Shown: positions 9,804-60,942 of the stretch, piece after piece
How positions within the stretch are numbered: position 1 is the first letter of the stretch
Layout: each line of letters opens with the position of its first letter
DNA from: Eledone cirrhosa
Lineage: Eukaryota
NCBI GenBank assembly: GCA_964016885.1
Contig: OZ024741.1
Location: forward strand, 99,014,001 to 99,078,000
Direction: 5' to 3'
Length of the DNA: 64,000 bases
Position numbers and translations under genes: made by a program
The notes under the pieces: model-generated
Told to the model about the DNA's origin: nothing
Seen by the model: only the letters and a program-made list of their open reading frames with translations
The model's database searches: none

Positions 9804-9895
9804 CGCCCGCAGAGGGACTTGAACCCGCGACCCTCAGATACCATCACATTTGAAACCGTAAAAGTCTGATGCTCTACCGACTGAGCTATGCGGGC
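9804..9895 (-). tRNA. tRNA-Lys(TTT) with 19-nt intron, intact
   Basis: Exons match the consensus GCCCGCATAGCTCAGTCGGTAGAGCATCAGACTTTTA / ATCTGAGGGTCGCGGGTTCAAGTCCCTCTGCGGGCG; intron cggtttcaaatgtgatggt; downstream oligo-T. Confidence 0.93.
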
Positions 9896-10943
9896 GGACA
9901 TGTTTGTGGTGTCAGTTATAGTCTTTACTTCTCAAATAAGATGGGACATATCTGTAATACATTCGTATTATGGTGGTGGGTTGGCAGTGTCGGTAGAGGG
10001 TCGGACGCCATGCTTAGCAGCATCGAGTTACGGCCTTTTCAGTCTCAATTCAAATCCCGCCGAGGTTACCTTTGCCTTTCGTCCACAATATAGTGTTTGA
10101 AGATTGTGGTTTAAATATCTATTGCATCAATTATCGTCTTTACTTTTCAGATAAGATGGGACATATCTATGTAGGAATAATATTTTTGAGGTTCTGTTTG
10201 GGTTTCGGAGATGTTACTCTCACTAAAATGTATTTCGAGACATTTTAATTTCTCGCCTTAGCGAATAATGTTGTGATAGTAATCCATCAACGGACTGAAC
10301 CTGGAGAATGCTGAATGTTGCCAGTTAAAGTATCTCAAACGGCGAATGGGAAATTCTTTTTTTTGTTCTTCAACCTTGTCCACAATCATTTATGAAATAG
10401 GTTTTATACATCCTACATTTCTGAAAATTTCGTCAAAAATTGTACAAGAAATCTGAGTGTTTCAGGTTCAAGTCACTCATCGAACGAAGAGAATTTTTTT
10501 TTTTTTGTGGTTGGGCGGGTATCATGAAGGTAGTTAGTATTCATTATGAAATAGGTTTTATACATTCGAACTTTCGGATATTTTGAACATTTGTTTAAGG
10601 TTATCTCAAAGATTTGTTGATCATATCATCTATACTCTAATTCACTCTATCCCTATAAAGTTACATATGAAAAGAAACACAAAATATTTAACAAAATGAA
10701 ACATGTGCAACTGTTACACTTTCAATGACTTGAAATATGAAACAAATTAGAAGACGTAATTGATATTTTAAACATAATAAAATGTTAAATACATACACAA
10801 TAGTTGTCAAGCTTGCAACGTATAAATTTGCCTTCGACAAAAATAGTTTATGTACGAAATCTATAAGAAAATATTGTCATATTTATCTTAACATCTCGGC
10901 TTAATTAAGCGATTCCTTACAAATGTAATTATATCAACTTATA

Positions 10944-11265
10944 AGGGCGGTGGATTGGCGGTATTGGTAGAGGGTCGGACGCCATGTTTTCCAGCAAAGA
11001 GTCACGTCCCTTTACGGTCTGAGTTCTAATCCCGCCAAGGTTAACTTTGCCTTTCATCCTTTCGGAGTCGATAAAATAAAGCACCAGTAATGCACTGGGA
11101 TAATTCCTGGCCTTGTGCCAAATGTAGAAACAATTATTTCAACGTATAGAGCGCTGGACACTTGCTTTGTGAAAATAAAGTACCAGTAATGCACTGGGTC
11201 GATTTAATCGACTTTCCCTTCCCCCCAAATTCCTGGCCTTGTGCCTATAGTAGAAATCATTATTT
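10944..11265 (+). mobile_element. Two tandem SINE copies
   Basis: gggcggtggattggc head with A/B boxes; separated by ttatttcaac target-like repeats. Confidence 0.8.
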
Positions 11266-11537
11266 CAACCTATAACTATACTATTTTCACATCAATATTA
11301 TTGGCTATGTCGAGAAATTAAAATCTCACCAAATACATTATACATCGTTAGTGAGATATAATCGACGAAACTCAAACAATATCGAAAATGTTATTTCTAC
11401 AAATAAACTTATGTATTCTATTTATGAAGTTACTCTGGGCAAAAGATACAACTGTTAAATCTCCCTAGTGCCAAATATTTAATATATTCCATTTTATTTG
11501 AAAAGTAAAGACTATAATTGACAATGTGAATATGTCC

Positions 11538-11629
11538 GCCCGCATAGCTCAGTCGGTAGAGCATCAGACTTTTACGGAATCAAATGTAAAGATATTTGAG
11601 GGTCGCGGGTCTAAGTCTCTCTACCGGCG
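11538..11629 (+). pseudogene. Intron-containing tRNA-Lys(TTT) pseudogene
   Basis: Intact 5' exon; B box mutated (ggtctaag) and acceptor-stem mismatches. Confidence 0.85.
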
Positions 11630-11634
11630 AATAT

Positions 11635-11775
11635 TTTGAATAGCTTCCTGCATTCAGCGTTAGCGGCCTTCATTCGGTAATCAACGTCTTTTTCAGCAGT
11701 GGCATTTGATGTTAGTACGATGCAAAGGAATGAAAATTGTTCGGCATCCTCCGAGTCCAGTCCGTTGATGGATTA
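11635..11775 (-). mobile_element. RTE-like LINE fragment
   Basis: Translates as EQFSFLCIVLTSNATAEKDVDYRMKAA; homologous to 23625-23690. Confidence 0.55.
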
Positions 11776-12054
11776 CTATCACAACAATATTATTTGCCTT
11801 TCATCCTTATGGAGTCGATAAAATAAAGTACCAGTAATACACTGGGTAATTGCTGGCCTAGTGCCAAAAGTAGAAACAATTATTTGTTAAGGCGAGAAAT
11901 TAAAATCTCATAAATTATAGTTTACATCATTAGTGAAATTTACATCTACGAAACTCAAATAGAATCTTTAACATATAATTCCTACAATTAATAAGTATAT
12001 ATGTCCCATCTTATCTGAAAAGTAATGACCATAATTGACGTCACAAATATGTCC

Positions 12055-12146
12055 GCCCGCGTATCTCAGTCGGTAGAGCATCAGACGTTTAGAGACTCAA
12101 ATGTGAAGGTAACTGAGGGTCACGGGTTCAAGTCCCTCTGCGAGCG
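12055..12146 (+). pseudogene. Intron-containing tRNA-Lys(TTT) pseudogene
   Basis: 92 nt with several substitutions, including U33G. Confidence 0.85.
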
Positions 12147-12434
12147 AATCTACGCTTTTTTTTTTTTATTTATAGAAAAATATTTTGACATTTATTTGTA
12201 ATTATGTATAAAGGTCATGTTTTACAGGTGAAATTTCTGAAAGCTTAAGTTTTTATTTAACATTATTGCACATCATTTTTAATCTCTACATTTGTGGTGA
12301 CGAACAAAATAAAATTATCACTATGTTATTGTCACTGTAATATTTCCTGTCCAATGTGACGAATAAATCTCACCTAACATATAATTTATTGCACATCCTT
12401 AGTGAGATTTGAAACCAACATCCTCAAACATTAT

Positions 12435-12775
12435 ATCAGTTCAACATTTTTTCCAGCCTGTGGCGTTTGAGACGTTTGGTGGACTTGGGCCGCTGAGAGC
12501 GAAGTTCTTGTCTTCACTGGCGGCTCACTTTACTGAGGTGCCAGGTGATGCCTGTGAGGATGCCTGGTTATTTCAGCGCCTTAGCCTCACCATCACCCCG
12601 TGGTAATGCTGCGAGCGTGTTATCTTGCCTGGAAGTGTGCAGTTAACCTCTAAGGTATGAGATGCGGCCGATTATCACACTTCGTGGCGAACTCCCCCCC
12701 CCCCCCCTTTTCCCCTTCTTTTTTCCTTTATCAATTTTGTTCAATGAATTTATATTATTGTGTTATTATAAACGG
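12435..12775 (+). mobile_element. CRE-like non-LTR retrotransposon 3' fragment (RLE C-terminus plus 3' UTR)
   Basis: FQPVAFETFGGLGP...AWLFQRLSLTI.RGNAASVL motif; paralogous copies at ~15810-16170, ~17800-18000 and ~23890-24225. Confidence 0.75.
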
Positions 12776-13030
12776 GTTAGGTGGCATAGAGGAGCGGGAG
12801 TTCTTATTCATTTATGATATATGTTTTATCATCGCAATTTTCTGATACTTTCATATTTTAAGGTTACATTATACATCGTTAGTAAGTTACATATACGAAA
12901 CTCAAACGGAACAACGAAAATGTTATTATATATAAATGTTGAATCTCCCTAGTGCAGAATACCAAACTGATATATTCCCTTTTTATCTTTAATGTAAAGA
13001 CTATAACAGAGCTCTAATGTCAAGACTATA

Positions 13031-13122
13031 ACCCGCATAGCTCAGTCGGTAGCGCATCAGACTCTTACAGATTCTAATGTGAAGGTATCTGAGGATCGTT
13101 GGTTCAAGACCCTCAGCGGTCG
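13031..13122 (+). pseudogene. tRNA-Lys pseudogene with the anticodon changed to CTT
   Basis: TCAGA-CT-CTT-A-intron; also G1A and changes in the D- and T-stems. Confidence 0.8.
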
Positions 13123-13774
13123 AATTTTTTTTTTTTTTTTCATTTATGGGGAAATTTTGATATTTATTTATATATATGGATAAAATGCATATTCTATATA
13201 TTAAATTTCTGATAGCTTAAGTATTTATTTAATGTTATTGTACATCTCTCATAATCTGAACGTTCCATGGTGATGTCTAACACTTAAAAATTTGTTGTGA
13301 CAAACAGAATAATATTGGTGTACGCAACAGAGAGACGGAGTGTTTTTTAGCCTCTCCTTAAAATCAGTAGCTTACTACACAGACTGACTGACCCCAAAGT
13401 CACCAACAATCACACAACAACATCCTAAAAGCATCTATCTTTCTATATCAACACACCACGTTTTACCCACAAATCTGTAAGTACATTTTAAAAAATACTT
13501 TAGAAAAAATTCTTTACTATTATTATTTTCTGTAACTACAAATTTTTCACTAAAGCCACATGTCCTGCACGAACACATATTCACCTGATCCGGAAAATAA
13601 AAATCCTACGAAATACATTATATATCGTTAGTGTTAGTTACATCTACGAAATTCAGACGTAACCTGGAAAATGTTATTCCTATTGATAATGAGTATATAC
13701 ACCGTGGTATTCAATCTGTGGGTAAATGAAAATATACAATGTTAAATATTATAATTAACCCAGTGAATATGTCC

Positions 13775-13841
13775 GCCCGCATAGCTCAGTCGGTAGAGCA
13801 TCAGACTTTTACAGATTCAGATGTGAAGGTATCTGCGGGCG
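13775..13841 (+). pseudogene. tRNA-Lys(TTT) pseudogene, T-arm deleted
   Basis: ...gaaggtatctg|cgggcg: 25-nt deletion between two TCTG repeats. Confidence 0.85.
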
Positions 13842-14344
13842 AATTGTTTTTTTGTTTTTTTTTTCATTTATGGGGACATTTTGATATCTATTTGTATTTA
13901 TGAATAAAATGCATATTCTATATATTAACTTTCTGATAATGTTATTGTACATCTCTCAATAATTGAAAGTTCCATGGTGAAGTCCAACACGTAAACATTT
14001 GTGGTGACAAACAATAAAATTATAACTATCTTAATGTCACTGTAATATTTCTTGTCCAATGAGACGAATACATCTCACTGAACATAAAACATATTAATTA
14101 TCCTTAGGGAGATTTTTAACCACAATCCTTAAACACAACACCAAAATATTTAATCCTCCAATGAGAAAGTATTCAACATACTGTATTGTATATATGAAAC
14201 AACTGACTTTCTATATAAGGTGAGTGTAAGCAAAAGCTAATTCTCCTTATCTAGATCGGCGTATCTTGTCTTGTCTGAAAATAATTATTTCTACTTTAGG
14301 CTTGTCTGAAAATAATGACTGAAAGGATGGACGAAGCTTGTGAC

Positions 14345-14436
14345 CACCGAATGTATTAGTTGGAAGAGCATCAGGTTTTACAATATATATTGTGAAGGTA
14401 TCAGAGAGTTTCCAGTTCAACTAACTCAAACGGCGA
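14345..14436 (+). pseudogene. Old tRNA-Lys relic (paralogs at ~18345-18440, ~22385-22470, ~33390-33481)
   Basis: agagcatcaggttttacaatatatattgtgaaggtatcagagag retains the anticodon arm and intron end. Confidence 0.6.
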
Positions 14437-15433
14437 ATGGGAAACGTATTTTGAGGCGGGGGTCTTCAATCTTGCCCATATTCATTTATGAATAGGTTTT
14501 ATACATCCCAAGTTACTGATATTTTCGTCAAGAATTGTATAAGAAATCTGAGTGTTTCAGGTTCAAATCACTCAACGAGAGAAGATAATCTGTTTTTGGT
14601 GGTGGGGTGGGTGTCATGAAGGTAGTTAGCATTCATTATGAAATATGTTTTATACATCCTAATTTTCTGATAATTTTAATTTTTCGATTAAGGTTATCTC
14701 ACAGATTATTGATAATATTATTAATACACTATTCCACACTATCTTTATAAAGATACATATGAAAAGAATCACGAAATATTTAACAAAATGATTTTAGATA
14801 TGAAACAATTTAGAAGACAATCGAAATCTTAAATATAATAAAATGTTAAATGCATACACAATACAAGTTGTCAACTTTACAACGTGTCAAGTTTACAACT
14901 TTCGACAAAAATAGTTTCTGTACGAAATCTATATGAAAATATTGTCATATTTATCTCAGCATCTCGGCTTATTTAAGCGAATCATTACAAATTGTATTAT
15001 TTCAATTGGCAGTATTGGTAGAGGGTCGGACACCATGCTTTGACGCATAGAGTTACGGCCCTTGCCATTCTGAGTTCAAATCCCGCCGAGGTTAACTTTG
15101 CCTTTCATCCTTACGGGGTCGATAAAATAAAGTACCAGTAATGCACTGGGTAATTGCTGGCCTTGTGCCTAACGTAGAAATAATTATTTCAACATATAAC
15201 TATATTATTATCACATCAATATTAAAATCTCGCGAAATATATTAAAATCTCGCGAAACTCAAACAGAATCTCGAAAATGTTATTTCTACAAATAAACTTG
15301 TTTTCTATCTATGATGCTACTATGGGTAAATAAAGAGATACAAATGTTAAATCACCATAGTGCGGAATACCTTACTGATACATCATATCTTATTTGAAAC
15401 GTAAAAACTATAATTGACGATACAATCATATCC

Positions 15434-15522
15434 GCCCGCATAGCTCAGTCGGTAGAACAGACTTTTACTGATTCAATTGTAAAGATATCTGAGGGTTGCG
15501 GGTTCAAGTACCTCTGCGGGCG
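15434..15522 (+). pseudogene. Intron-containing tRNA-Lys(TTT) pseudogene
   Basis: 3-nt deletion at the D-stem/anticodon-stem junction. Confidence 0.85.
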
Positions 15523-16568
15523 TATTCATTTTCTTTTATGGGGAAATATTTTAACATTTATTTGTAATTAACTATAAAAACCACATTTTATTCGTTAAAT
15601 TTCTGATAGGTTACGTGTTTATTTAACATTATTGCACATCATTTTTAATCTCGACATTCCATGGTGAAGTGTAACACTTAAACATTTGTGGTGATAAACA
15701 GAATAATATTATAACTATGCTATTGTCACTGTAATATTTCTTGTCCAATGTCCATATAATTTATTACACATCCTTAGTGTGATTTGAAACCACAGTCCTC
15801 AACCACTATATATAAATTAATCATTTTTTCCAGCCTGTAGCGTTCGAGACGTTTGGTGGACTTGGGCCGGTGGCAGCGAAGTTTCTTGTCATCACTGGCG
15901 GCTCACCTTACTGAGGTGTCAGGTGATGCCCGCCCGTGAGGATGCCTGGTTATTTCAGCGGCTTAGCCTCACCATCAGTCGTAGTAATGCTGCGAACACG
16001 TTGTCTTGCCTGAAAGTGTGCAGTTAACCCCTAGGGTGTAAGGTGCGGCCGATTATTACACTTGGTGGTATGTTCCCCGCACCCCCAAACGACCCACTTT
16101 TTTACCTTCTGTTTTCTTTCCTTTATCATTTTTGCTCAATGAATTTATATTATTGTTATTATAAACGGTTTAGACATTGTATTTGTAATGTCGTTTTGAA
16201 CGAATTGCGAACAATTTACAATGTTATTTACGTATTTGTTATGTTATTTATGTATATATTTAAAATATATTTGCAACGTTATTCTACTGTAAATTTATAC
16301 AATTTCTATATTAAATTGCTGAAAAGAAAAACCCACTATATTCTGGAGATCTCTGTGTGTTGCAGTTACAAATCACTCAGCATACGAAGAACATTCTTAT
16401 AATATTTATGTTAGGTGGCACGGGGGTCGGGGAGTTCTTTTTCATTCATGATACGCGTTTTATCATCGCAATTTTCCGATACTTTCATAATTTAGGGTTG
16501 CATTTTACATCGTTGGCGAGAGTTACATCTACGAAACTCAAGAGGAACAACGAAATGTTATTCCTACA

Positions 16569-17332
16569 AATAATTGTTTCTACTTTTGGCACAAGTACCC
16601 AGTACATTACTGGTACTTTATTTTATCGACCCCGTAAGGATGAAAGGCAAAGTTGACCTCGGCGGGATTTGAACTCAGAATGGAAAGGGCCGTAACTCTA
16701 TGCGTCAAAGCATCACGTCCGACCCACTACCGATACTGCTAATCCACCACAAATAATGGTTTCTCATTTAGGCACAAGGCCATTAATTTTGGGGAAAGGA
16801 AAGTGGATTAAATCGGCCCCAGTGCGTTACTGGTACTTTATTTTATTGACCTCGTAAGGATGAAAGGTAAATCTAACCTCGGTAGGATTTCAACTGAGGA
16901 TGATAATTTTATGCAGCAAAGCATGGTGTGTGACGCTCTACTGATACTGCCAAACCACCGTCCTGTTATTCCTACAAATAGTGGTTTCTACTATAGGCAC
17001 AAGGCCAGCAATTTTGGAGGAGGGGAAAGTCGATTAAATCGACCCCAGTGCGTGACTGGTACTTTATTTTATCGACCCCATAAGGATGAATTGCAAAGTT
17101 ACCCTCAGTGGGATTTGAACTCAGATCATAATGGGCCGTAATTCTATGCTGCAACGCATGGCGTCCAACCCCCTAACGATACTGCCAATCCACCGTCCTG
17201 TTATTCCTACAAATAATTGTTTCTACTTTTGGCACAAGGCCAGCAATTACCCAGTGCGTTACTGGTACTTTATTTTATCGACCCCGTAAGGATGAAAGGT
17301 AAAGTTAACCTCGGCGGGATTTGAACTCAGAA
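16569..17332 (-). mobile_element. Four tandem SINE copies at one site
   Basis: Copies separated by repeats of (tgttattccta)caaataa. Confidence 0.8.
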
Positions 17333-17417
17333 TTCCTACAAATAATAAGAATGTATTACAGATATGTCTCATCATATTTGATAAGTAAAGACTATAATTG
17401 ACGCAGTAAATATGTCC

Positions 17418-17509
17418 GCCCGCATAGCTCAGTCGGTAGCGCATCAGACTTTTACAGATTATAATGTGAAGGTATCTGAGGGTCGCGGGTTCAAGTCCCT
17501 CTGCGGGCG
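17418..17509 (+). tRNA. tRNA-Lys(TTT) with 19-nt intron, near-intact (A23C)
   Basis: One D-stem mismatch against the consensus; oligo-T terminator follows. Confidence 0.8.
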
Positions 17510-19055
17510 AATTTTTTTTTTTTATTTCATTTATTTGTAAATAAGTATAAAAACCACATTTTACTCGTTAAATTTCTGAAAGCTTAAGTTTCTATTTAAC
17601 ATTATTGCACATCATTTTTAATCTCGACATTCCATGGTGAAGTGTAACACTGAAACATTTGTAGTGATAAACAGAATAATATTATAACTATATTATTGTC
17701 ACTGTAATATTTCTTGTCCAATGTGACGAATAAATCTCACCTAACATATAATTTATTACACATCCTTAGTGAGATTTGAAACCCAAATCCTCAAACACTA
17801 TATAAAGTAATCATTTTCCAGCCTGTGGGTGGCGAGACGTTTGGTGGACTTGGGCCGCTGACATCAAAGTTCTTGTCTTCACTGGTGGCTCACCTTACTG
17901 AGGTGTCAGGTGATGCCCGTGAGAATGCCTGGTTATTTCAGCCTTGTCATCACCCGTGGTAATGCTGCGAGCGTGTTGTCTTGCCTCAAAGTGTGCAGTT
18001 AAGTTTCTATTTAACATCATTGTACATCATTCTTAACCTGAACGTTCCATAGTGAAGTGTAACACTTAAACATATGTGGTGACAAACAGAATAATATTGT
18101 AAATATGTTATTGTCACTGTAATATTTCTTATTAATGTAACGAATAAATCTCACCTAACATAAAACATATAACACATAATAATATTTTAAACCACAATCC
18201 TCAAACACAACACTAAAATATTGAGTCCCCCAAATAGACTGTATTGTATATCTGAAAAATTTGACTTTTAATACGAGGTAAAAGTAAACAAAAGCTCATT
18301 CTCCGTATCGAGATCAGCGAAATTTGTGTCTTAGGTGAAAGTGAAAGTGCAGATCGAGAACTCAGCATATCGCACTAGAATTTTACAAACTGTATTGTGG
18401 AAATATCTGAGTGTTGCAGGTTCAAGTCAATCAGCGGATGATGAGAATTCTTATGTTATTATTAGGTGTGGAGTGCTTCCTATTCATTTGTGAAATACAT
18501 TTTATCATCCCAATATCTGATACATTTAGTTTTTGTTTAACGTTACATTATACATCGTTAGTGAGAATTACATCTACGCAACACAGGCGGAACCTTGAAA
18601 ATGTTAGTCCTCCTTATGTATTCTATCTACGAAGTTACTCTATGTAAATGAAAAGATACTGTTAAATCTCTCCAGTGAGAAATACGTACCTGGTACATTT
18701 ACAAAAGTAAAGACACAATTGACACAAGTAAAGCCATTTTCCACACTAAATTTCTGATAGCATAAGTTTTTTTTATTTAACATTATTTCACATCATTCTT
18801 AATCTGGACATTCCTCCTTAAGGTTGGAAATTAAAATCTCGTTAGTGAGATTTACATCTACGAAATTCAGACGGAACCTGGAAAATGTTATTCTTACAAA
18901 TAATAAGTATACACTCTGGTGTATTCTATCTATTCAGTTAGTCTGGGTAAATGAAAAGATACAAATGTTAAATCTCTCTAGTGCGGAATAGCTACCTGAT
19001 ATATTCCCTTTTTATCTGAAATGTAAAGACTATAATTGAATCCACGAATGTGCCC

Positions 19056-19156
19056 GCCCACGTATCTCTGTCGGTAGAGCATCAGACTTTTACAGATGTG
19101 AAGGTATATGTGGGTTGCGGGTTCAAGTCCCAATCTGAGGGTTGCGGGTTCAGGCC
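19056..19156 (+). pseudogene. tRNA-Lys pseudogene with a 13-nt intron and a partly duplicated 3' exon
   Basis: cagacttttacagatgtgaaggt...; gggttgcgggttca occurs twice. Confidence 0.75.
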
Positions 19157-19564
19157 AACTTTTTATTTTATTTATTTTTTTTTTTTTATAGGGAAATTTT
19201 GAGTTCAAATCCCGCCGAGGTTAGCTTTGTCTTTCATCCTTACGAGTTCGATTTAATCGACTTTCCCTCCCCCCAAAATTGCTGGGCTTGTACCTATAGT
19301 AGAAATAATTATTTCAAACTATAACTATTTATTTTCACATCAATATTCGCTATGGCGAGAAATTAAAATCTCACCAAATATATTATACATAGTTAGTGAG
19401 ATATATAAAATGTTATTTCTACTAATAAACTTGTGTATTCTATTTGTGAAGTTACTCTGGGTAAATAAAAAGGTACAACTGTTAAATCTCCCTAGTACCG
19501 AATATCTAATATATTCCATTTTATTTGAAAAGTAAAGACTATAATTGACAACATGAATCAGTCC

Positions 19565-19656
19565 GCCCGCATAGCTCAGTCGGTAGAGCATCAGCCTTTT
19601 ACGGATTCAAATGTAAAGGCATCTGAGGGTCTCCGGTTCAAGTCCCTCTGCGGGCG
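19565..19656 (+). pseudogene. Intron-containing tRNA-Lys(TTT), probably a pseudogene
   Basis: A31C and T-stem mismatches. Confidence 0.8.
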
Positions 19657-19814
19657 AAGATTTTTTTTTTCCCCTGAGAGGCATCGTGATTCGAAGTGGT
19701 TTATGAAATATGTTTATACTTCCTAAGTTCCTGTATCAGAAACTATTGACTTTTCTATACGAGGTGAAAGTAAATAAAAGCTAATTCTCCATAACAAGAT
19801 CGGCGTAACTTGTC

Positions 19815-19906
19815 TGTAGAGCAGACAAGTCGGTAGAGCATCAGACTTTTACAGATTCAAACGTGACGGCATCTGAGGGTCGTGGGTTGAAGTCCCTCTG
19901 CAGGCG
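19815..19906 (+). pseudogene. tRNA-Lys pseudogene, 5' end lost, B box mutated
   Basis: agtcggtagagcatcagactttt...ggttgaagtccc. Confidence 0.75.
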
Positions 19907-20547
19907 AATTATTATTATTATTTTTTCATTTATAGGGAAATTTTGATATTTATTTGTATTTATGGATAAAATACATATTCTATATATTAAATTTCTGATA
20001 GCTTAAGTATCTAATTAATGTTATTATACATCTCTCATAATCTGAAAGTTCCATGGTGAAGTCCAACACTTAAACATTTAAAATAAAGCACGAGTAATGC
20101 ACTGGGATAATTGCTGGCCTTGTGCCAAAAGTAGAAACAATTACTTCAACGTTTAGAGCGCCGGACACTATGCTTTGTGGCATAGAGTTGTGGCCCTTTA
20201 TGTTCTGAGTTCAAATCCAGCCGAGATTAGCGTTGTCCTTACGAGGTCGAGAACATAAAGTACCAGTAATGCACTGGGTCGATTTAATCGACTTTCCCTT
20301 CCCCCAAAATTGCTAGCCTTGTGCCTATAGTAGAAATCATTATTTCAAATTATAATATATTATTTTCACATTAATATTATTCGCTATGTCGAGAAATTAA
20401 TATCTCACCAAAAATATTATACATAGTTAGTGAGATATATAAAATGTTATTTCTACAAATAAACTTATGTATTCTATTTATGAAGTTTCTTTGGGTAAAT
20501 AAAAAGATACAACTATTAAGACTATAATTGAGAGTATGAATACGTCC

Positions 20548-20639
20548 GCCCGCATAGCTCAGTCGGTAGAGCATCAGACTTTTACGGATTCAAGTGTAAA
20601 GGTATCTGAGGGTCGCGGGTTCAAGTCCCTCTGCGGGCG
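20548..20639 (+). tRNA. tRNA-Lys(TTT) with 19-nt intron, intact
   Basis: Consensus exons; intron cggattcaagtgtaaaggt; long oligo-T terminator just downstream. Confidence 0.93.
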
Positions 20640-20739
20640 TAGATTTTTTTTTTTTATAAGAGTCTTCGTGATTCGTAGTCGTTTATGAAATATGTTTATA
20701 CCTCCTAAGTTCCTGATAATTTTTTTAACGTTGTTCACT

Positions 20740-20803
20740 GAGCATCAGACTTTTACAGATTCGAATGTGACAGCATCTGAGGGTTCAAGTCCCTCTACGG
20801 GCG
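20740..20803 (+). pseudogene. Partial tRNA-Lys copy
   Basis: 5'-truncated; 7-nt deletion between two GGGT repeats. Confidence 0.75.
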
Positions 20804-20971
20804 AAGATTTTTTTTCTTTTTTCATTTATTGGGAAATTTTGATATTTAATTATGGATAAAATATTTATGGTTAAAATGCATATTCTATATATTAAATTTC
20901 TGATAGCTTAAGTATTTATATAATGTTATTGTACATCTATCATAATCTGAAAGTTCCATGGTGAAGTCCAA

Positions 20972-47522: not shown

Positions 47523-47614
47523 CGCCCGCAGAGGGACTTGAACCCGCGACCCTCAGATACCTTAACAGTATAGGTTATAAAAGTCTGATGCTCTACCGAC
47601 TGAGCTATGCAGGC
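47523..47614 (-). tRNA. tRNA-Lys(TTT) with 19-nt intron (U4-G69 wobble)
   Basis: Identical to 42773-42864. Confidence 0.88.
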
Positions 47615-49287: not shown

Positions 49288-51798
49288 AATATAATTTTTT
49301 TTTTTCGTGTGAGGCTTTGTAGTTTGTAGTTGTTTATGAAATATCTTTTTCACCTCCTACGTTCGTGATAATTTTTAACGTTGTTTCACTGATATTTTAA
49401 TCATTCTGTTAATAACCTATTCCTATTTAACTTTATAGTGTTACCTATAAGGATTACAGTTCCAATGACCTGAAATATGAAACACATTAGAAGAGGTCAT
49501 AGAAATCTTAAGTACAATGTAATAATTGTTTCTACGTTAGGCACAAGGCCAGCAAATACCCAGTGTATTACTGGTACTTTATTTTATCGACCCCGTAAGG
49601 ATGAAAGGCAAAGTTAACCTCGACGGGATTTGAACTCAGAATGGCAAGGGCCGTTGAAATAATAAAGATGTATCACATCTAGGCGGACAAGCTTGAATTG
49701 TGTAAATAAGGAAAGAAAGAAGAAGAACCGGAAGGGTAGGGGATGACAATAGCTCTTGTGTTGGAGAAGAGAGGGGGTGGAGGGTGAGGGTGATTGATCT
49801 TTGGGCCTAGGTCAACAGGACAGAAGTGCTGCGCTCCGCTGACAAGACGGCAAAAGTATTCCCCCTGACGATGGTCAATGACAGCCGCTGCAACAACCAG
49901 CCGATCACGCGGGGCTCCCTCCTGTGACGAGCCGCTGACGCTACGATCTTGCGGAGGAGCTCGGCAGTATGGGGTACAAGTACGTCTGATGTCTCAATGG
50001 TGACCGGTGCCTAGAGGAAGCGGCCGGAAAAACCCGGTATATGATTATTTTGGGTTCTTCTGCGAAGCAGGCTGCAATGCCGGGGTTTGTGGCCGAAGCG
50101 ACTAAGTTGGAGGCGGAGAACGTGAAGCAGGCGGTGGCGTCCCAGATGAAGAATATACCTCCTTCGAATGGGAAGAGGGGTGATTCCGTCAGGGCGCTTG
50201 CCATCTCCACCGTCGAGGCCTGCTGGTTCCAGTTGAGATGGAAAGCCAGCTGCGTCCAGGCTTTTTCTCAATATGTCGTTGAGAGCGGCGTGTTTAGGGA
50301 ACCGGCGTGCTCTGGCGACAAGAGAGAGGGTGCAGGCTCAATTTGTCAACAACCGCTCCGCAGAGGCATTTATGTGGCTCACACACGTGCAACTATTTGA
50401 TAATAATACATATAATAATCTGTTAGACACGCAGTGACTAACAATAGAATGTTTTAAGTCTGCGTGTCTGATGTGTTGTGATGACATACATGCGTAGCTT
50501 GTGAATGAAAATGTCAAGGGGTATCGCTGGCCGTGGTGATGCCTCCCAAACATCTTTTGTAATGTATCGTCTTATTGGCTAATTTCATCGTCTTATTGGC
50601 TAATCAACCAACGAGAGTAACTGTTGCTCAAAAGCATCCGCCACTTTGTTTCCACGTTTATTTATCGTTTCGCTTTCGAATCTTCCTCCAGTATTTCGTC
50701 GTTTTATCATCAAAACATTTTCTCGTTTGGGAAAGTTATATTGTTAATTTATATAGGATTTTTTAATTTTATGTTAACTATTAAAAGTCTGAAAATATGT
50801 TTATACATCTTACAATAATATTTATAAGATCATTTATAAAATAACATTTATATAATCTAATTACATTACAACGATAATTTATTATTAATATTTAACTAGA
50901 GTTATTACAAGTGTTGCTTAAAAAAATATTAAACTAGACCTGAAAAATGCGCAAGATCAAAAGAGCCACAGAATGTTATAATAAACCTTCAAAAGTGTGG
51001 GACTAGAGTTGTTGCTCAAAAATATTGTAATCATTATCTATCGTACACTCTATGGCATCATTTTATAAAAAAAGAGACTCATAACGAACTCAAGACGGCA
51101 CGATAATTATTTAAGTGAATGTATAATATAGAATTCGGTTTAAGTACATATCGTATTAATCATTACTAAACATCTTTTTTATAAAAGGATGCCACAGAGT
51201 GTACGATAGATAATGATTACAATATTTTTTAGTAACAACTCTAGTCCCACACTTTTGAAGGTTTATTATAACATTCTGTGGCTCTTTTGAGCCTGCGCAT
51301 TTTTCAGGTCTAGTCATATATGTAACCTCATTGTGTTAATTGTAAAGTATGACCTATTCACAGTTATCTTAATATTGTATTGTAAAATATGATCGTTGTA
51401 CGCATTCATTTCAATGCGTTTACAGTTTGTCATGAATCGCTTTCATACACCCGGAAGCTGAGATATAAAAAATACTTTCCTATATATTTTGTAAATAAAA
51501 TATTCTTGTTAAAGACTTATTTACACATAATTGAAGATTGTCTGCCTAGTATTGTGTATGTCTTTATTATTTCATTATACTTAAGATTTCTATTACCCGT
51601 TCTAATGTGTGTGATATTTCAGGTCATTGGTACTGTAATCCTTATTGTAACACTATAAAGATAAATAAGAATAGGTTATTAATAGAATGGTTAAAAGATC
51701 TTTAAAACAATCTTAAAGAATAAAATCATGGGATATATAAATCATATTTCATAAACGAATACAAACCACAAAAACTCTCATGGGAAAAAAATTATATT

Positions 51799-51890
51799 CG
51801 CCCGCAGAGGGACTTGAACCCGCGACCCTCAGATACCTTAACAGTATAGGTTATAAAAGTCTGATGCTCTACCGACTGAGCTATGCGGGC
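51799..51890 (-). tRNA. tRNA-Lys(TTT) with 19-nt intron, intact
   Basis: Consensus exons; intron taacctatactgttaaggt. Confidence 0.93.
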
Positions 51891-52899
51891 GGACAATATT
51901 CTAGCTGTCACTTAGACTCTTTATTTTTAAATAACACAGGATAGATAACAATAAGACTTCATATTTTCAGATATGATGGGATATATCAGTGACATATTTC
52001 ATGTTACGGATATATAATATTTTAATTTTACCTCCTTACCCATAGATAGAACACATCATTGTGTTTACTTACTACTGATATTGCTGATATTTGCCAGGTT
52101 TCATTTCAGTTCCGTCCGTGTAATTCTCGCAAGTGATGTGTAGTGTATGTTCTATTTGGTGAAATTTAAATTTCTCGCCTGAGTGAATATTCTTGTGATA
52201 ATAATATAGTAATATGATGACATTTTGCGGTAGTTATTCTGCTGTCTTAATTGTTTTATACCTTAATTTATTAAAATATAGTTTAAGGATAGATATGTAG
52301 CAGTTGCCTCTCTTGTTGTGACTCACAACCCCAATAGATTAACAACATCTAGACGGGAAGTAGAACCCCTTCTGTAACTTCCGGTCAGAACCCTATAAAA
52401 CTAACAACTTTAAGTTCTCACCCTCTCATTTGCCCTTCCGGCGCCTGGCCTTCGCCAGGCGTCTTCTGCCAGCCTGCGTTTGCCTGGCAATCAAAACGGT
52501 AACTACTAACTTTGCTTCATTCTTTCGTTTATTCATTGACATGTCAACTATACTGTTAAATTGTTGATTAAATATTATACACACAAACCATGTCTCTTTG
52601 TTACATTCATACACACGAGTTCTCCGCTATAGATATTTTTTGACGATTGTGTTTCAAAAAATGTTATAATAAATTATATTACTCACGGCTCTTAGTCACT
52701 TGTTAAGAATAAAATCTCTCATCCTGTTCCTCTTAAAGCATTGAACATACTCTACACGAGTAGATTAGTGACAACTTCAGAAGCACAAGGATTAGATCTC
52801 GTAACAGTAAACTAAAATTAAGTAAATAGTGAAATGATCAGTAAATTAACATGCGAAATACGTATTTTATAAATACTTTCACGAATAAAAGAATTACTT

Positions 52900-52991
52900 C
52901 GACAAAAGAGGTCCTTGAACTCGTGACCCTCAGATACCTTAACAGTATAGGTTATAAAAGTCTGATGCTCTACCGACTGAGCTATGCGGGC
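52900..52991 (-). pseudogene. Chimeric tRNA-Lys: intact 5' exon and intron joined to a relic T-arm/acceptor
   Basis: The sequence switches within gtc from the consensus gene to the 39137-type relic. Confidence 0.85.
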
Positions 52992-54574
52992 GGACAATAT
53001 TCTAGCTGTCACTTAGATTCTTTATTTTTAGATAACACAGGATAGATTAGTCAGGCGTAGTTAACAATAAGACTTCATATTTTCAGATATGATAGGATAT
53101 ATCAGTGACATATTTCATGTTACGGATATATAATATTTTAATTTTGACTTCTTATCCATAGATAGAACACATCATTGTGTTTACTTACTACTGATATTGC
53201 TGATATTTGCGAGGTTTCATTTCAGTTCCGTCCGTGTAATTCTCGCAAGTGATGTGTAGTGTATGTTCTATTTGGTGAAATTTAAATTTTTCGCCTGAGT
53301 GAATATTGGTGTGATAATAATATAATAATATGATGACATTTTGCGGTAGTTATTCTGCTGTCTTAATTGTTTTATACCTTAATTTATTAAAATATAGTTT
53401 AGGATAAATATTTTTTGACGATTGTGTTTCAAAAAATGTTATAATAAATTATATTACTCACGGCTCTTAGACACTTGTTAAGAACAAATCTCTGATCCTG
53501 TTCCTCTTAAACCATGTAGTTGACTATTGAACATACTCTACACTAGTAGATTAGTGACAACTTTAGAAGCACAAGGATTAGATCTCGTAACAGTAATCAA
53601 AAATTAAGTAAATAGTGAAATGATCAGTAAATTAACATGCGAAATACGTATTTTATAAATACTTTCACGAATAAAAGAATTACTTCGACAAAAGAGGTCC
53701 TTGAACTCGTGACACATAGAAAGTTTCACAGATTTAACATATTTTCAGACTCGATGGCATATATGTTACGTATTTTGCACTACGGAGTTTTAATTTTTAT
53801 ATGATTTCTCTTACCCAGACTAACTCCATAGATAGGATACATCAACATGTATACTTACTATTTGGAAGACCAACCTAGTCGAGGTTAACTTTGAGATTAG
53901 TCGGTGTACTTCTCACTAGCAATGATTAATGGATTTGGGAATATTGTAATTGTTTGCCTTAGGGAATAATATTGTTGTGATAATAATAAGTTATATAGTG
54001 AGATATAACTTATATTATTATCACTCGCATAATCAAATCCAAAATCAGATATATAAGAGACAATATTATAAATATTGTACATGAATATATTATTGTCGGA
54101 GCCATATTTATACACAGTGCAAGTTTGACAAATAGTATTGTGTATGCATTTATCATTTAATTGTGTTTAAAATTTTGATTATGTCTTCTAATCTGTTTCA
54201 TATTTCAAGTCATTGAATGTGTAACACTTGTACATGTTTCATTTTGTTCTTCTTATCGTGTCCACAAGAGTGTCAGTTACAGAGCTTGGTTAGATGTGAT
54301 TTCCAAGTAGAACATACACTACACATCGCTTGTGAGAATTACACGGACGAAACTCCAATGGAACCTCGCAAAGATCAGCTATATGAGTAGTAAGTAAACA
54401 CAACTATGGATAAGAAGTCAACATATAAAATATTTGATATCCGTAATTCGAAATATGTGACTGATATATCCCATCATATCTGAAAATATGAAGTCTTATT
54501 GTTAACTTCGCCTGACTAGTCTATCCTGTGTTATCTTAAAATAAAGAGTCTAAGTGACAGCTAGAATTCTATCC

Positions 54575-54666
54575 GCCTGCATAGCTCAGTCGGTAGAGCA
54601 TCAGACTTTTATAGCATATATTATGAAGGTATCTGAGGGTCGCGGGTTCAAGTCCCTCTGTGGGCG
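54575..54666 (+). tRNA. tRNA-Lys(TTT) with 19-nt intron (two G-U pairs in the acceptor stem)
   Basis: Identical to 49196-49287. Confidence 0.82.
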
Positions 54667-55708
54667 AATATAATTTTTTTTTTTCGTGTGAGGCTTTGTA
54701 GTTTGTAGTTGTTTATGAAATATCTTTTACACCTCCTACGTTCGTGATAATTTTTAACGTTGTTTCACTGATATTTTAATCATTCTGTTAATAACCTATT
54801 CCTATTTAACTTTATAGTGTTATCTATAAGGATTACAGTTCCAATGACCTGAAATATGAAACACATTAGAAGAGGTCATAGAAATCTTAAGTATAATGTA
54901 ATAATTGTTTCTACGTTAGGCACAAGGCCAGCAAATACCCAGTTTATTACTGCTACTTTATTTTATCGACCCCGTAAGGATGAAAGGCAAAGTTAACCTC
55001 GACGGGATTTGAACTCAGAATGGCAAGGGCCGTTGAAATAATAAAGATGTATCACATCTAGGCGGACAAGCTTGAATTGTGTAAATAAGGAAAGAAAGAA
55101 GAAGAACCGGAAGGGTAGGGGATGACAATAGCTCTGGTGTTGGAGAAGAGAGGGGGTGGGGGGTGAGGGTGATTGATCTTTGGGCCTAGGTCAACAGGAC
55201 AGAAGTGCTGCGCTCCGCTGACAAGACGGCAAAAGTATTCCCCCTGACGATGGTCAATGACAGCCGCTGCAACAACCAGCCGATCACGCGGGGCTCCCTC
55301 CTGTGACGAGCCGCTGACGCTACGATCTTGCGGAGGAGCTCGGCAGTATGGGGTACAAGTACGTCTGATGTCTCAATGGTGACCGGTGCCTAGAGGAAGC
55401 GGCCGGAAAAACCCGGTATATGTTTATTTTGCGTTCTTCTGCGAAGCAGGCTGCAATGCCGGGGTTTGTGGCCGAAGCGACTAAGTTGGAGGCGGAACCT
55501 CGCAAAGATCAGCTATATGAGTAGTAAGTAAACACAACTATGGATAAGAAGTCAACATATAAAATATTTCATATACGTAATTCGAAATATGTGACTGATA
55601 TATCCCATCATATCTGAGAATATGAAGTCTTATTGTTAACTTCGCCTGACTAGTCTATCCTGTGTTATCTTAAAATAAAGAGTCTAAGTGACAGCTAGAA
55701 TTCTATCC

Positions 55709-55785
55709 GCCTGCATAGCTCAGACTTTTATAGCATATACTGTGAAGGTATCTGAGGGTCACCGTTTCAAGTCTCTCTGCGTGCG
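55709..55785 (+). pseudogene. tRNA-Lys pseudogene, D-arm deleted; a separate 3' fragment at 55857-55877
   Basis: 15-nt deletion between two TCAG repeats. Confidence 0.85.
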
Positions 55786-56219
55786 AATGCAATTTTTTTT
55801 CCATTAGACTCTTCGTGGTTTGTATTCATTTATGAAATATGTTTTAGATATCCCAAGTTCAAGTCCCTCTGCGGGCGAATATAAGCTTTTTTTTATGAGA
55901 GTCTTTGTGGTTTGTATTCGTTTATGAAATACGTTTTAGATATCCCAAGTTCCGGATAATTTTAGTTTTTGTTGTTTAAGGTTGTTTCAAATATGTTCTA
56001 ATAATTCTATTAAGAACCTATTCCCATTTAACTTTACATTGTTACATATAAGGACTACAGTTCCAATGACCTGAAATATTAAATGCATTTGAAGAGATAA
56101 TAGAAATCTTCAGTATAATGAAATGATAAAGATATACACAGAACTAGACGGACAAACTTGAATTATGTGTAAATAAGTCTTCAGGAAGAATAGTTTATTC
56201 ACAAAATATATAAGAAAGA

Positions 56220-56900
56220 AAATAGGTTTATTTACAATACTTTATAACTTTGCCTATTAATCCGTATGGTGAGCAAAGTGGGGCCACGTGCTGGCCTCCC
56301 CACAGGCCCGGCGGACAGGATGGCGAAGGCGTTTCCCCGGAGGATGGTAAGGGAGATGCGCTGGAAGAGCCATTCCAACTCACGAGGCTCACAGCTGTGG
56401 CTGGCCAGTCCAGCGCCTATGGTGGTGAGTAGGGAGGTAGCCCTAGGGCCAAGGACACCAGAAGTCTCAACTGCCAAGGGCATGTCCACGAATCTGTCGG
56501 AGAGCGACCGGTACTTGGAGAGTTTGGCCTCCTCAGCCCAACGTGCAGCAGAACCTGGGTTAGTCGCAGACTGCACTAGGTTACGGCTGGAGAAAGTGTC
56601 GCTGCAAGTGGCATACCAGACGAGGGCTTTGCCACCGCGGAACGGGAAAATGGTCATACCGTCTGGCCTTTTGCTATCCCTTCGGTCCAGCCCCACCGGC
56701 TCGAGCTGGGAGGGGAAGCCTGCAGCATCCAAGCCATGCTTAATGACCTCGTTGAGGGCAGTGTGGCGTGGAAGGCGGCCAGCACTGTGGCGACAGGAAA
56801 GCGGGTGGTGTCCGAAATAGACCACGGTGGATCCACAGTGACATTTATGTGGCTCGCAGATCCGGAGTCCAAGCCTCAAGGAAACGCCGATGTGCAGGCT
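56220..56900 (-). mobile_element. CRE-like 5'-truncated retrotransposon with an open RLE domain (ORF 56232-56879)
   Basis: CHC...H...C knuckle, RH, RPD, E..K..KY, PLAVETSG and WLFQRISLTILRGN; interrupts aagaaag|tatcgtc, with an empty paralogous site at ~58314. Confidence 0.88.
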
Positions 56901-57074
56901 ATCGTCTTTTATATCTCAGCTTCCGGGCGTTTGAAACGTTTCTTGAAGAACTGTAACAACATGGTAATGAATGCGTACACCGATCAATGTTTACAATACA
57001 GTATTAGGATAACTGTCAATAGATCATACTTTACAATTCACACAATGAGGTCACATATATGATTATTATATGTA

Positions 57075-57735
57075 CTAGCAGAAAAACCAACCTTCGGGTG
57101 GTATCTGCTGGCATATGCAGTGTGTATATTGATATTATACGCAAGTAGATATAGATATTATATGCATGTAGATATGATACATCAAATAAAATCGTAATTG
57201 GCAATATACACAGAAATTGAAAGAAGACTGTGTTACACTCTCTTAAGTAATCAGTAACGTAATCTATGATACATTAAAAAAAGACGATAATATATATAAA
57301 CTGTATTAGGAGAAAATTAGTGACGGAAATATATATATGTTTATTCAAGCGATCGCTAACCGGAAGTTTTGACGTTTGAAAATGTTAAAGAAGTGAATTT
57401 TTAAATAAACAATAATATATATATAATCAACAGCCACGAAATTTAGTAGATAAATTATATAAAATTCATTCATTATTTATTCAAAGTAATAGGGCGGTGG
57501 ATTGGCAGTATCGGTAGAGGGTCGGGCACCATGCTTTCCAGCATAGTTACGTCCCTTTACGATCTGAGTTCAAATCCCGCCGAGGTTGACTTTGCCTTTC
57601 AACCTTACGGGGTCGATAAAATAAAGAACCAGTAATGCACTGGATAATTGCTGGCCTTGTGCCTAAAGTAGAAACAATTATTTATTCAAAGTAATCCAAC
57701 TTATTTTACTAATGGGTTAAAAAAAAAACTTGTTT
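57075..57735 (-). mobile_element. Helitron-like non-autonomous insertion with a nested SINE
   Basis: Minus strand ends in hairpin accacccgaaggttggt then ...CTAG|T; empty paralogous site tgtactatcaaattg at ~58487. Confidence 0.5.
57491..57680 (+). mobile_element. Full-length tRNA-derived SINE with TSD
   Basis: A box tggcagtatcgg, B box gagttcaaatcc; flanked by tttattcaaagtaat direct repeats. Confidence 0.92.
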
Positions 57736-57879
57736 ATCAAATTGTTGCAGAGTAAACTTTATCATATATCTCAGTCGATAGAGCTCAACCTTCTACAGCT
57801 TGATTTTTTTAGATATCTGACTTGTCTATCTTGTGTTATCTAAAAATAATATGTATAAGTGACAGCTCCAATATCGTCC

Positions 57880-57971
57880 GCCCGCATAGCTCAGTCGGTA
57901 GAGCATCAGACTTTTATAGCAAGTACTGTGAAGGTATCTGAGGGTCGCGGGTTCAAGTCCCTCTGCGGGCG
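57880..57971 (+). tRNA. tRNA-Lys(TTT) with 19-nt intron, intact
   Basis: Consensus exons; intron tagcaagtactgtgaaggt. Confidence 0.93.
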
Positions 57972-59768
57972 AATATAAGCTTCTCTTTTTATGAGAGTCT
58001 TTGTGGTTTGTATTCGTTTATGAAATACGTTTTAGATATCCCAAGTTCCGGATAATTTTAGTTTTTGTTGTTTAAGGTTGTTTCAAATATGTTTTAATAA
58101 TTCTATTAATAACCTATTCCCGTTTAACTTCATAGTGTTACTTATAAGGACTACAGTTCCAATGACCTGAAATATGAATCACATTAGAAGAGATAATAGA
58201 AATCTTAAGTATAATGAAATAATAAAGATATACACAGAACTAGGCGGACAAGCTTGAATTATGTGTAAATAGATCTTCAACAAGAATAGTTTATTTACAA
58301 AATATATAAGAAAGTATCGTCTTTCATATCTCAGCTTCCAGGCGTTTCGAAGCGATTCTTCACAAACTGTAACGAGATTGAAATGAATTGCGTACAACGA
58401 TCATATTTTATAATACAATATTAGGATAACTGTAATAGATCATACTTTACAATTCACACAATGAGGCTACATATATGATTATTATATGTACTATCAAATT
58501 GTTGCAGAGTAAACTTCGTCATATATCTCAGTCGATAGAGCTTCAACATTCTACAGCTTGATTTTTTGAGATATCTGTAGCCGATGCAATTCTTTTATAA
58601 GATTTATGAAATAAATATTTTCGGATAGTTTCACCATCTATTTAATTTAATATAGCGTTAACAGAAGGAATTACTATTAAATATCAAAAGCTATCGCTGT
58701 AGTATAAGCCTCATCAGTACCTTTAATCAAGTCTATCCACATAGGTCACTTGGGTGAGAATCAACCTCTTCCAGGTTAAAATGTGGAAATATCTAATTGT
58801 AACATATATCTGTATTATTATCACAATAATTTTCGTGTCTGACAATAAACACAACCAGTACTGTATTCTATATTTGAATCAATTGCCTTTCCTTAGGTGG
58901 TGAAATATTAAGAACAAAAGCTATCGCTGTAGTGAAACCTTTGTCAGTAGTTTTTATCGGTTGACCATCAAACCCAAACTATTAAAAATGTGGAACTTTC
59001 TGTGTGTCACGGGTTCGAGTACCTCTTTTGTCGATGTAATTCTTTTATTCGTGAAAGTATTTATAAAATACGCATTTCGCATGTTAATTTACTGATCTAT
59101 TCACTATTTATTTAATTTATTATACAGTCATTTTAGTTTTTATACAGTTTTGATATGATTACCATTACAATATCTAATCCCTGTTCTTGTGAAGTTGTGA
59201 CTTATCTAATAGTGTAGAGTATGTCCAATAGTCTACTCCATAGTTTCGGAGGAATAAAATCAGAGATGTCTTCTGAGAAAGTTTCTAACAGCAATGAGAA
59301 ATATTATTTATTATAACAATTTTTGAGACAGATTCGTCAAAAAATATCTACCTTAAACTATGTTGCAATAAATTTAGGTATAAAACCAATTAAGACAGCA
59401 GAATAACTACCGCAACATTTTATCATATAACTATATTATTATCACAACAATATTATTCGCTAAGGCAAGAAATTTAAATTTCACCAAATAGAACATATAT
59501 TACACATCGCTTGTGAGAATTACACGGACGAAACTCCAATGGAACCTCGCAAATATCAGCAATATGAGTAGTAAGTAAACACAATGATGTGTTCTAACTA
59601 TGGATAAGAAGTCAAAATATAAAATATTATATATCCGTAACATGAAATATGTGACTGATATATCCCATCATATCTGAAAATATGAAGCCTTATTGTTAAC
59701 TACGCCTGACGAATCTATCCTGTGTTATCTGAAAATAAAGAGTGTAAGTGACAGCTTGAATATTGTCC

Positions 59769-59860
59769 GCCCGCATAGCTCAGTCGGTAGAGCATCAGAC
59801 TTTTATGACGTATATTGTGAAGGTATCTGAGGGTCGCGGGTTCAAGTCCCTCTGCGGGCG
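59769..59860 (+). tRNA. tRNA-Lys(TTT) with 19-nt intron, intact
   Basis: Consensus exons; intron tgacgtatattgtgaaggt; oligo-T terminator. Confidence 0.93.
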
Positions 59861-60000
59861 AATATAATTTTTTTTTCCATGGGTGTCTTCGTGGTTTGTA
59901 TTTGTTTATGAAATATGTTTATATATCCCATGTTCCGGATAATTTTAGTTTTTGTTCTTTAACATTGTTTCACTGATATTATATTCATTCTATTAATGAC

Positions 60001-60093
<93 letters not shown>

Positions 60094-60118
60094 CCCTCTC
60101 TCTCTTTCTCTCTCTCTC
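60001..60118. repeat. (CT)n microsatellite
   Basis: Direct reading. Confidence 0.95.
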
Positions 60119-60119
60119 G

Positions 60120-60575
60120 TGAAGCTAAACTCCGCTAGTTGCAGATGCTCATCAACATGAGATATTTTTCTCCACAAAGTTTCATCACCAGCAGCTGAGT
60201 TTACAGAGCGATGATCAAGTCCAGTCCATAGACTGCCGGCCTCTGCTTCTCTTACCTGCCAATCTTCCTTCCAGGCATAACCTACTCACACCACGAGTTG
60301 ATCTTTTTATATGGCCGTATATTTTGAGTACTCTTGACTTGACAATTCATGTAATTGGTCAAAGTTTGGTAATGTTAAGCAGCTCACTGATACAGATACA
60401 GTTACCTAGACGCTTGCCAGTCATAAGTCTTATGATGTTGTTCTGGAATGTAGAGAGCTTCTGAAGTGACCATGTCGTCCAATTAACACAGTCAAGACCA
60501 TATAACACAACTGGTAGGATGTAATTATCAAAGATCTTAGCCTTCAAATGATAGGAAACTCGTTTTGATTTACAA
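60120..60575 (-). mobile_element. RTE-like LINE 3' fragment ending at the (GA)n run
   Basis: LKAKIFDNYILPVVLYGLDCVNWT motif. Confidence 0.7.
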
Positions 60576-60850
60576 GTAGAACATACACTACACATCACTT
60601 GTGAGAATTACACGGACGAAACTCCAATGGAACCTGACAAAGACCAGCTATATGAGTAGTAAGTAAACACAATGATGTGTTCTATCTTTGGATAAGAAGT
60701 CAAAATATATAATATTTGATATCCGTAATTCGAAATATGTGACTGAAAATTATATCTGAAAATATGAAGTCTTATTGTTAACTACGCCTGACTAGTCTAT
60801 CCTGTGTTATTTAAAAATAAAGAGTCTAAGTGACAGCTTGATTATTGTCC

Positions 60851-60942
60851 GCCCGCATAGCTCAGTCGGTAGAGCATCAGACTTTTATAGCATATATTGT
60901 GAAGGTATCTGAGGGTCGCGGGTTCAAGTCCCTCTGCGGGCG
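60851..60942 (+). tRNA. tRNA-Lys(TTT) with 19-nt intron (60888-60906), intact
   Basis: Consensus exons; intron tagcatatattgtgaaggt; long oligo-T terminator. Confidence 0.94.

Follow-up and report, generated by a model that had tools for sequence, protein, structure and literature searches.

Intron-containing tRNA-Lys(UUU) genes in a duplicated gene cluster of the octopod Eledone cirrhosa

The 64,000-nucleotide stretch of Eledone cirrhosa DNA analysed here (GenBank assembly GCA_964016885.1, contig OZ024741.1, in the following C2:99,014,001-99,078,000; the window) lies within a roughly 90-kb cluster of genes for tRNA-Lys(UUU) in the 3.0-Gb genome of this octopod. Seven copies in the window possess identical exons, and each of them harbours a different intron. 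The locus raises the question whether such copies are maintained as tRNA genes together with their splicing, or whether they represent a largely neutral family of tRNA-derived repeats. [quoted passage not shown]

The gene cluster and its introns

The cluster extends from window position ~7,400 to ~96,200 (C2:99,110,186), ~30 kb beyond the end of the window. By means of BLAST with one copy, 106 copies and fragments were gathered from the window and from loci around Lys-UUU matches in the same genome, and their exons were classified strictly, any change at an unpaired site rendering a copy degenerate. Identical exons were found in 16 of the 106 (7 of the 36 in the window) and only stem-compatible changes in 28 (4 in the window, all of them G-U-compatible), 42 (15) are degenerate and 20 (10) represent fragments. 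The features of the window are as follows:

7373..63187, both strands: tRNA-Lys(UUU) array of 36 copies and fragments, 25 of them degenerate or partial
9804..9895, minus strand: tRNA-Lys(UUU) gene with reference exons; intron 9840-9858; T-tract on the 3' side
20548..20639, plus strand: tRNA-Lys(UUU) gene with reference exons; intron 20585-20603; T-tract on the 3' side
31221..31312, plus strand: tRNA-Lys(UUU) gene with reference exons; intron 31258-31276
51799..51890, minus strand: tRNA-Lys(UUU) gene with reference exons; intron 51835-51853
57880..57971, plus strand: tRNA-Lys(UUU) gene with reference exons; intron 57917-57935
59769..59860, plus strand: tRNA-Lys(UUU) gene with reference exons; intron 59806-59824
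60851..60942, plus strand: tRNA-Lys(UUU) gene with reference exons; intron 60888-60906
42773..42864, minus strand: probably functional tRNA-Lys(UUU) copy, changed by C4T (U-G wobble in the acceptor stem); intron identical to that of the 51890 copy
47523..47614, minus strand: tRNA-Lys(UUU) copy with C4T, likely functional; intron identical to that of the 51890 copy
49196..49287, plus strand: probably functional tRNA-Lys(UUU) copy, changed by C4T and C68T (each compatible with wobble pairing)
54575..54666, plus strand: probably functional tRNA-Lys(UUU) copy, changed by C4T and C68T
34762..55496, no strand assigned: recent segmental duplications multiplying tRNA copies, in blocks of 1-6 kb with 88-99.5% identity

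Each of the seven genes with reference exons scores 59 bits against the Rfam tRNA model RF00005 (cut-off 29) and forms a cloverleaf with a UUU anticodon, in which 20 of 20 checked stem pairs form. Removal of the 19 nt after A37 leaves a 7-nt loop and restores all 20 checked pairs. The intron site is the canonical 37/38, one base 3' of the anticodon, and the sole intronless copy found in the genome (see below) is joined there too. The cloverleaf with its UUU anticodon, A and B boxes inside the gene and a T-tract after all seven genes suggest functional genes of RNA polymerase III (Pol III). At 50/64 in the T stem, the intact copies have a constant mismatch of two pyrimidines (C50/U64 in 42 of 44, swapped to U50/C64 in 2). 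If run without intron search, ARAGORN mislabels the genes as Stop, Val or Tyr, which serves as a warning for annotation; with introns allowed it assigns Lys, but the intron boundary shifts by 0-2 bases among copies.

A sequence-only reading of the window had regarded the seven identical-exon copies with their seven distinct introns as the result of purifying selection on both the mature tRNA and its splicing. All seven intron strings were located, each flanked by the same two exons (37 and 36 nt); the copies had, however, been picked for exon identity, so that the argument from these seven is circular. The intron anatomy proposed at the same time was recovered: all seven introns measure 19 nt, begin with the bases YR and end in TGTRAAGGT, exactly in five cases and with one base off in two. 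G at the third-last intron base (-3) is present in all seven and, on wider checking, in each of the 44 intact copies of the genome and 69 of 70 genomic pattern matches. The fixed intron length, in contrast, did not hold: a genomic pattern permitting a gap of 0-30 bases yielded 65 of 70 matches with 19 nt and five with 16, 17, 18, 24 and 24 nt, none having a gap of 0. Considering this genome-wide range of 16-24 nt and introns of 13-32 nt in metagenomes (see below), 19 nt was discarded as a required length. The proposed concentration of variation in the loop was confirmed for the seven copies, with a mean pairwise difference of 0.548 at intron positions 3-10 vs 0.090 at positions 11-19; their aligned flanks differ by 0.26-0.27 and their exons by 0.

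Selection among duplicated copies

Parsimony counts of changes covered every full-length cluster copy whose intron measures 19 nt, 49 in number (exons identical in 7, compatible in 16 and degenerate in 26; fragments and copies of other intron length left out), on four trees, based on the upstream flank, the downstream flank, both flanks and all columns, respectively. Exon changes numbered 5-15 on internal vs 77-100 on terminal branches, compared to 174-189 vs 305-385 for the flanks (Fisher p 1e-4 to 9e-12). The internal exon changes are mostly C4T and C68T, i.e., acceptor-stem G-U wobbles (4/6, 4/5 and 5/7 on the three flank-only trees). Within the intron, positions -5 to -3 changed twice, where the flank rate would give 13-15 changes, and positions 11-19 underwent 19-21 changes vs 40-47 expected. 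The loop, with 38-61 changes vs 36-41 expected, evolves at or above the flank rate. It is well supported that the exons and the intron 3' end are under purifying selection while the loop evolves at about the flank rate, in a birth-and-death pattern. The selection postulated by the sequence-only reading is hence carried by the 49-copy comparison, in which the exons are not at flank divergence, and not by the seven copies from which it had been argued.

Exon identity could also result from ascertainment in combination with gene conversion or recent duplication, the cluster then being largely a neutral tRNA-derived repeat family. The 25 degenerate or partial copies among the 36 in the window fit this explanation, as do duplicated blocks of 1-6 kb reaching 99.5% identity and the fact that upstream and downstream flanks group some copies differently, which suggests exchange. 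Conversion would, however, have to homogenise two exons of 36-37 nt and yet skip the 8-nt loop between them (difference 0.55). Moreover, internal branches are depleted of exon changes on all four trees, with most of the internal ones being wobble-compatible on the flank-only trees, and the reference exons are also found within unrelated flanks on other chromosomes. The neutral explanation is largely refuted by the tree test and is considered highly improbable.

New copies arise by duplication, both tandem and segmental, and the majority decay, as shown by the parsimony counts with exon changes mainly on terminal branches. Four of the seven reference-exon copies (51890, 57880, 59769 and 60851) are close paralogs. 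Beyond the window, 17 near-identical tandem units of 1.29 kb are located at C2:99080700-99101450, each containing one Lys-UUU copy with C4T and C68T. A tRNA-derived short interspersed element (SINE), expected to be dispersed in thousands of copies with a non-tRNA body, a tail and an unselected cloverleaf, was rejected as an assignment, since the copies number 106, are mostly clustered and have constrained exons; no added non-tRNA body was detected in the dispersed Lys-UUU copies inspected. A separate dispersed tRNA-like family (L243, L245-L253) shares one body with the anticodons GGC, AGC, GAC, GGT and GTC and is likely the head portion of a SINE derived from a tRNA. The window contains only two stop-free frames of at least 200 codons (26468-27079 and 56235-56915, both on the minus strand), which by eye look like retrotransposon remnants.

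Anticodon-intron pairing and splicing

Metagenome contigs were scanned for Lys-UUU exon ends separated by a gap of 5-35 bases, by which intronless genes are excluded; 126 stretches were obtained and 121 loci analysed. These contain 100 distinct introns, all with -3 G: 67 reside in 'animal-type' exons (the type of the octopod's Lys-CUU gene), and measure 13-32 nt, and the other 33 occur mostly in dense tRNA arrays, two of the respective contigs being labelled as giant-virus metagenome-assembled genomes in IMG/VR. At the penultimate intron position, G (-2 G) is present in 7 of the 67 animal-type introns and in none of the 33 others.

The precursor transcribed by Pol III would carry, besides the intron, a short leader and a trailer that ends in a T-tract, as suggested by the gene anatomy and by dispersed copies that stop at the terminator. 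The 3' end of the intron probably pairs with C32-U35, and the enzyme-competent form would be the one joining C32 to -3 G with a 3-nt bulge, in agreement with the conservation and with published TSEN rules. Base 32 is complementary to the third-last intron base in all 44 intact copies (C32 / -3 G). For the free RNA, folding predicts a preference for the register one base away: with the cloverleaf fixed, a continuous 8-bp helix with C32 on -2 G and a 2-nt bulge is the predicted lowest-energy structure of all seven genes. The long helix of the sequence-only reading is thus predicted to form and its -3 G is kept, but this helix puts C32 one register off the -3 pair with which it had been combined. 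According to the accessible parts of PMC10485636 and PMC6614914, the proximal anticodon-intron pair, with a 3-nt bulge, is critical for splicing, and an over-tight anticodon-intron helix lowers it; the rule of the anticodon-intron pair itself has been known for long.

The long slipped register might itself be the functional helix, tolerated or used by TSEN. In addition to being the lowest-energy fold in seven of seven genes, it agrees with the presence of -2 G in 37 of the 44 intact copies, and a +1:-8 pair, which 23 of the 26 distinct introns of intact copies can form, is in keeping with a long helix in E. cirrhosa. The latter pair can, however, also form in the -3 register with U36 bulged, -2 G is scarce in the metagenome introns (7/67 and 0/33), and a 3-nt bulge is invariably present in Drosophila precursors as far as the accessible text of PMC6614914 goes. 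The -3 register is favoured because -3 G is invariant in the intact copies while -2 varies (A or T in 7 of 44), and a functional slipped register is regarded as most improbable. A specific prediction is that -2 G acts as a decoy for -3 G.

The -3 register provides four possible pairs, C32-U35 with -3 to -6. A closing pair +2:-7 is possible in 25 of the 26 distinct introns from intact copies (0.96 vs 0.82 shuffled, p 0.011) and in the metagenome sets in 52/67 (0.78 vs 0.69, p 0.002) and 23/30 (0.77 vs 0.46, p <0.001), and the +1:-8 pair (0.88 vs 0.73 shuffled, p 0.004 uncorrected) lacks enrichment in the metagenome sets; as 24 position pairs per set were compared uncorrected and column shuffles ignore relatedness, these enrichments are leads.

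TSEN would cleave the precursor and RtcB would ligate the exons, genes for both being present. A search for the TSEN catalytic domain (PF01974; TSEN54 and TSEN15 lie outside its range) yielded matches at two loci, on C15 and C21, the C15 exon being 87% identical to Sen34 of Octopus bimaculoides and 84% to Argonauta hians; RtcB exons were found at one locus on C6. Searches of the genome with four patterns describing the anticodon arm of a Lys-UUU gene devoid of an intron gave one locus in all, located on C22. As a positive control, 57 of the 58 matches of the loosest pattern are intronless Lys-CUU genes; two clusters of ~20 copies each of these genes lie at C4:79.56-79.62 Mb and C4:128.67-128.74 Mb. 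Since no intact intronless Lys-UUU gene was found by these pattern searches, which yield lower bounds and could miss a diverged one, decoding of AAA would depend on tRNA splicing.

The C22 copy (C22:28601802-28601874; L061, L212) has a broken acceptor and T stem and lies between TA repeats. Its exons are joined exactly at 37/38, and 12 of 13 trailer bases are shared with an intron-bearing gene at C15:1072820. It is likely a retrocopy of a spliced precursor with an untrimmed 3' end, the alternative being an old intronless gene; if the retrocopy reading holds, the retained trailer indicates that splicing can precede 3' trimming. Dispersed intron-bearing copies at C1:192115379, C1:264329474, C1:278670099, C1:299701662 and C3:113910624 keep the intron together with a few leader bases and the trailer as far as the terminator, after which (TA)n begins. 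They resemble transcripts of genes at C1:206.1 Mb and C1:298.3 Mb that were retroposed without having been spliced.

Several points weigh against selected and spliced Lys-UUU genes as described here. Transcription and splicing of the precursor are what we infer from sequence, with indirect support from the retrocopy-like genomic copies, and the search for intronless genes has the limit stated above. Near-identical tandem repeats account for many of the 49 copies, and assembly duplicates may be among them; moreover, resolution of the trees is weak, and the neutral rate may be overstated where flanks contain gaps. Placing C32 on -3 G, a slip by one base with a possible 3-nt bulge, is predicted to cost 2.3-4.8 kcal/mol more in all seven genes, and minimum-energy folding predicts a probability near 0 for this pair in most introns. 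Loss of -3 G is also rare in degenerate copies (3 of 42 vs 0 of 44 intact), too few to separate the classes or to use the loss as a marker of dead copies. Convincing target-site duplications were absent from the 14 dispersed copies inspected.

Origin of the intron and comparison with known systems

Metazoan tRNA introns are prevalent in Tyr-GUA, Ile-UAU, Leu-CAA and Arg-UCU and essentially absent from other tRNAs according to the accessible text of PMC12530127 (2025), and the same four-tRNA picture is drawn from 576 genomes in that of PMC12168002, of which a per-tRNA supplementary figure, not readable here, may bear on Lys-UUU. The accessible part of PMC4536317 makes no mention of Lys. A literature search, GtRNAdb and subscription reviews being outside its reach, retrieved no report of Lys-UUU introns in animals; automated genome annotations may well show this intron already.

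From the GtRNAdb-based statement on other metazoan tRNAs (PMC12530127, accessible text), a recent, lineage-specific gain of the intron in octopods could be deduced, and one 19-nt template common to most introns of E. cirrhosa would agree with it. This explanation concerns the origin only and is compatible with the mechanism favoured above. It is opposed by the 67 distinct introns at the same site of animal-type metagenome genes, whose hosts are not firmly identified, and by the introns of budding yeast Lys-UUU genes (PMC6582322, as far as accessible), and is rated unlikely. More speculatively, and with considerable doubt, the Lys-UUU intron may represent a fifth, overlooked animal tRNA intron that is old, perhaps common to animals and fungi, retained in cephalopods and in several other invertebrate groups and lost in the model animals dominating the databases. 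It might be preserved for a function such as directing modification of tRNA-Lys(UUU), or slowing splicing by a two-register helix so that TSEN activity sets AAA decoding.

As to the surroundings of the metagenome introns, one locus bears a Lys-CUU gene differing by two bases from that of the octopod. Intron-bearing Lys-UUU adjoins a cyclin-dependent kinase (CDK) inhibitor gene in two contigs (L103 and L142) and a leucine-rich repeat (LRR) gene in two others (L122 and L129); the CDK-inhibitor neighbour of L142 has homologs in mixed eukaryote clusters, and the LRR neighbour of L129 resembles arthropod-dominated clusters, a lead only. The 50/64-type pyrimidine mismatch recurs in 11 of 66 animal-type genes. 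Giant-virus-like contigs (L107, L113, L141 and L168, as well as L236-L240 from IMG/VR, two of them labelled GVMAG) carry Lys-UUU introns of 10-24 nt with -3 G, and some such arrays (e.g., L104, L127 and L139) mix intron-bearing and intronless Lys-UUU calls. In E. cirrhosa, intron-bearing Ile-UAU-like genes alternate with Lys-UUU genes at C1:206118000-206128300. Intron calls of ARAGORN beside Lys genes ('Ser', 'Tyr' and 'Asn') were read by eye as Ile-UAU in the own genome and Tyr-GUA in metagenomes, and no further unusual tRNA intron was recognized among these neighbouring calls. The genome-wide Rfam tRNA search scored 63 of ~550,000 candidates and provides no full list of intron-bearing isotypes.

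The cluster resembles tRNA gene clusters undergoing birth-and-death evolution in its tandem and segmental duplication, its many decayed copies and its conserved exons within diverged flanks; it differs in that the intron adds a contrast within the gene, a constrained 3' end vs a free loop. With the archaeal bulge-helix-bulge (BHB) motif it shares the four pairs C32-U35 between two 3-nt bulges and the predicted closing pair +2:-7. In contrast to that motif, further closing pairs are weak in E. cirrhosa (+3:-8 forms in 3 of 26 introns), and mismatches are frequent in the central helix of the metagenome set (21 of 67 introns pair U34:-5). The strict form, i.e., a 3-nt bulge, a 4-bp helix, a 3-nt bulge and closing helices on both sides, was rejected because closing pairs after the first mostly fail in E. 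cirrhosa; the fold is at most a relaxed BHB-like motif.

In Saccharomyces cerevisiae the same isoacceptor has an intron, a likeness by description. In the accessible text of PMC6582322, a yeast strain devoid of the Lys-UUU intron is viable and has a late growth defect on glycerol. Fungi differ from animals in ligating by Trl1 rather than RtcB (PMC10485636, accessible part).

With the metazoan tRNA genes spliced by TSEN and RtcB, those of E. cirrhosa share the 37/38 intron, the match of C32 to the third-last intron base, a short helix, a variable loop and encoded TSEN and RtcB; intron-bearing Ile-UAU genes, as read from their sequence, adjoin Lys-UUU genes on C1. They differ in that Lys-UUU is outside the four tRNAs listed in the accessible text of PMC12530127 and PMC12168002, and the sister Lys-CUU of E. 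cirrhosa, unlike Lys-UUU, is intronless. That the Lys-UUU introns would constitute a real, mechanistically ordinary TSEN-type set is well supported. They add to the list of animal tRNAs with introns, which comprised four in the 2025 papers; this suggests that the list mirrors the genomes sampled. With 26 distinct introns set in intact exons that are nearly identical, they also provide a natural series for the study of animal TSEN rules. The splicing mechanism is not new; the unusual point is the isoacceptor that carries the intron and its apparent spread among non-model animals.

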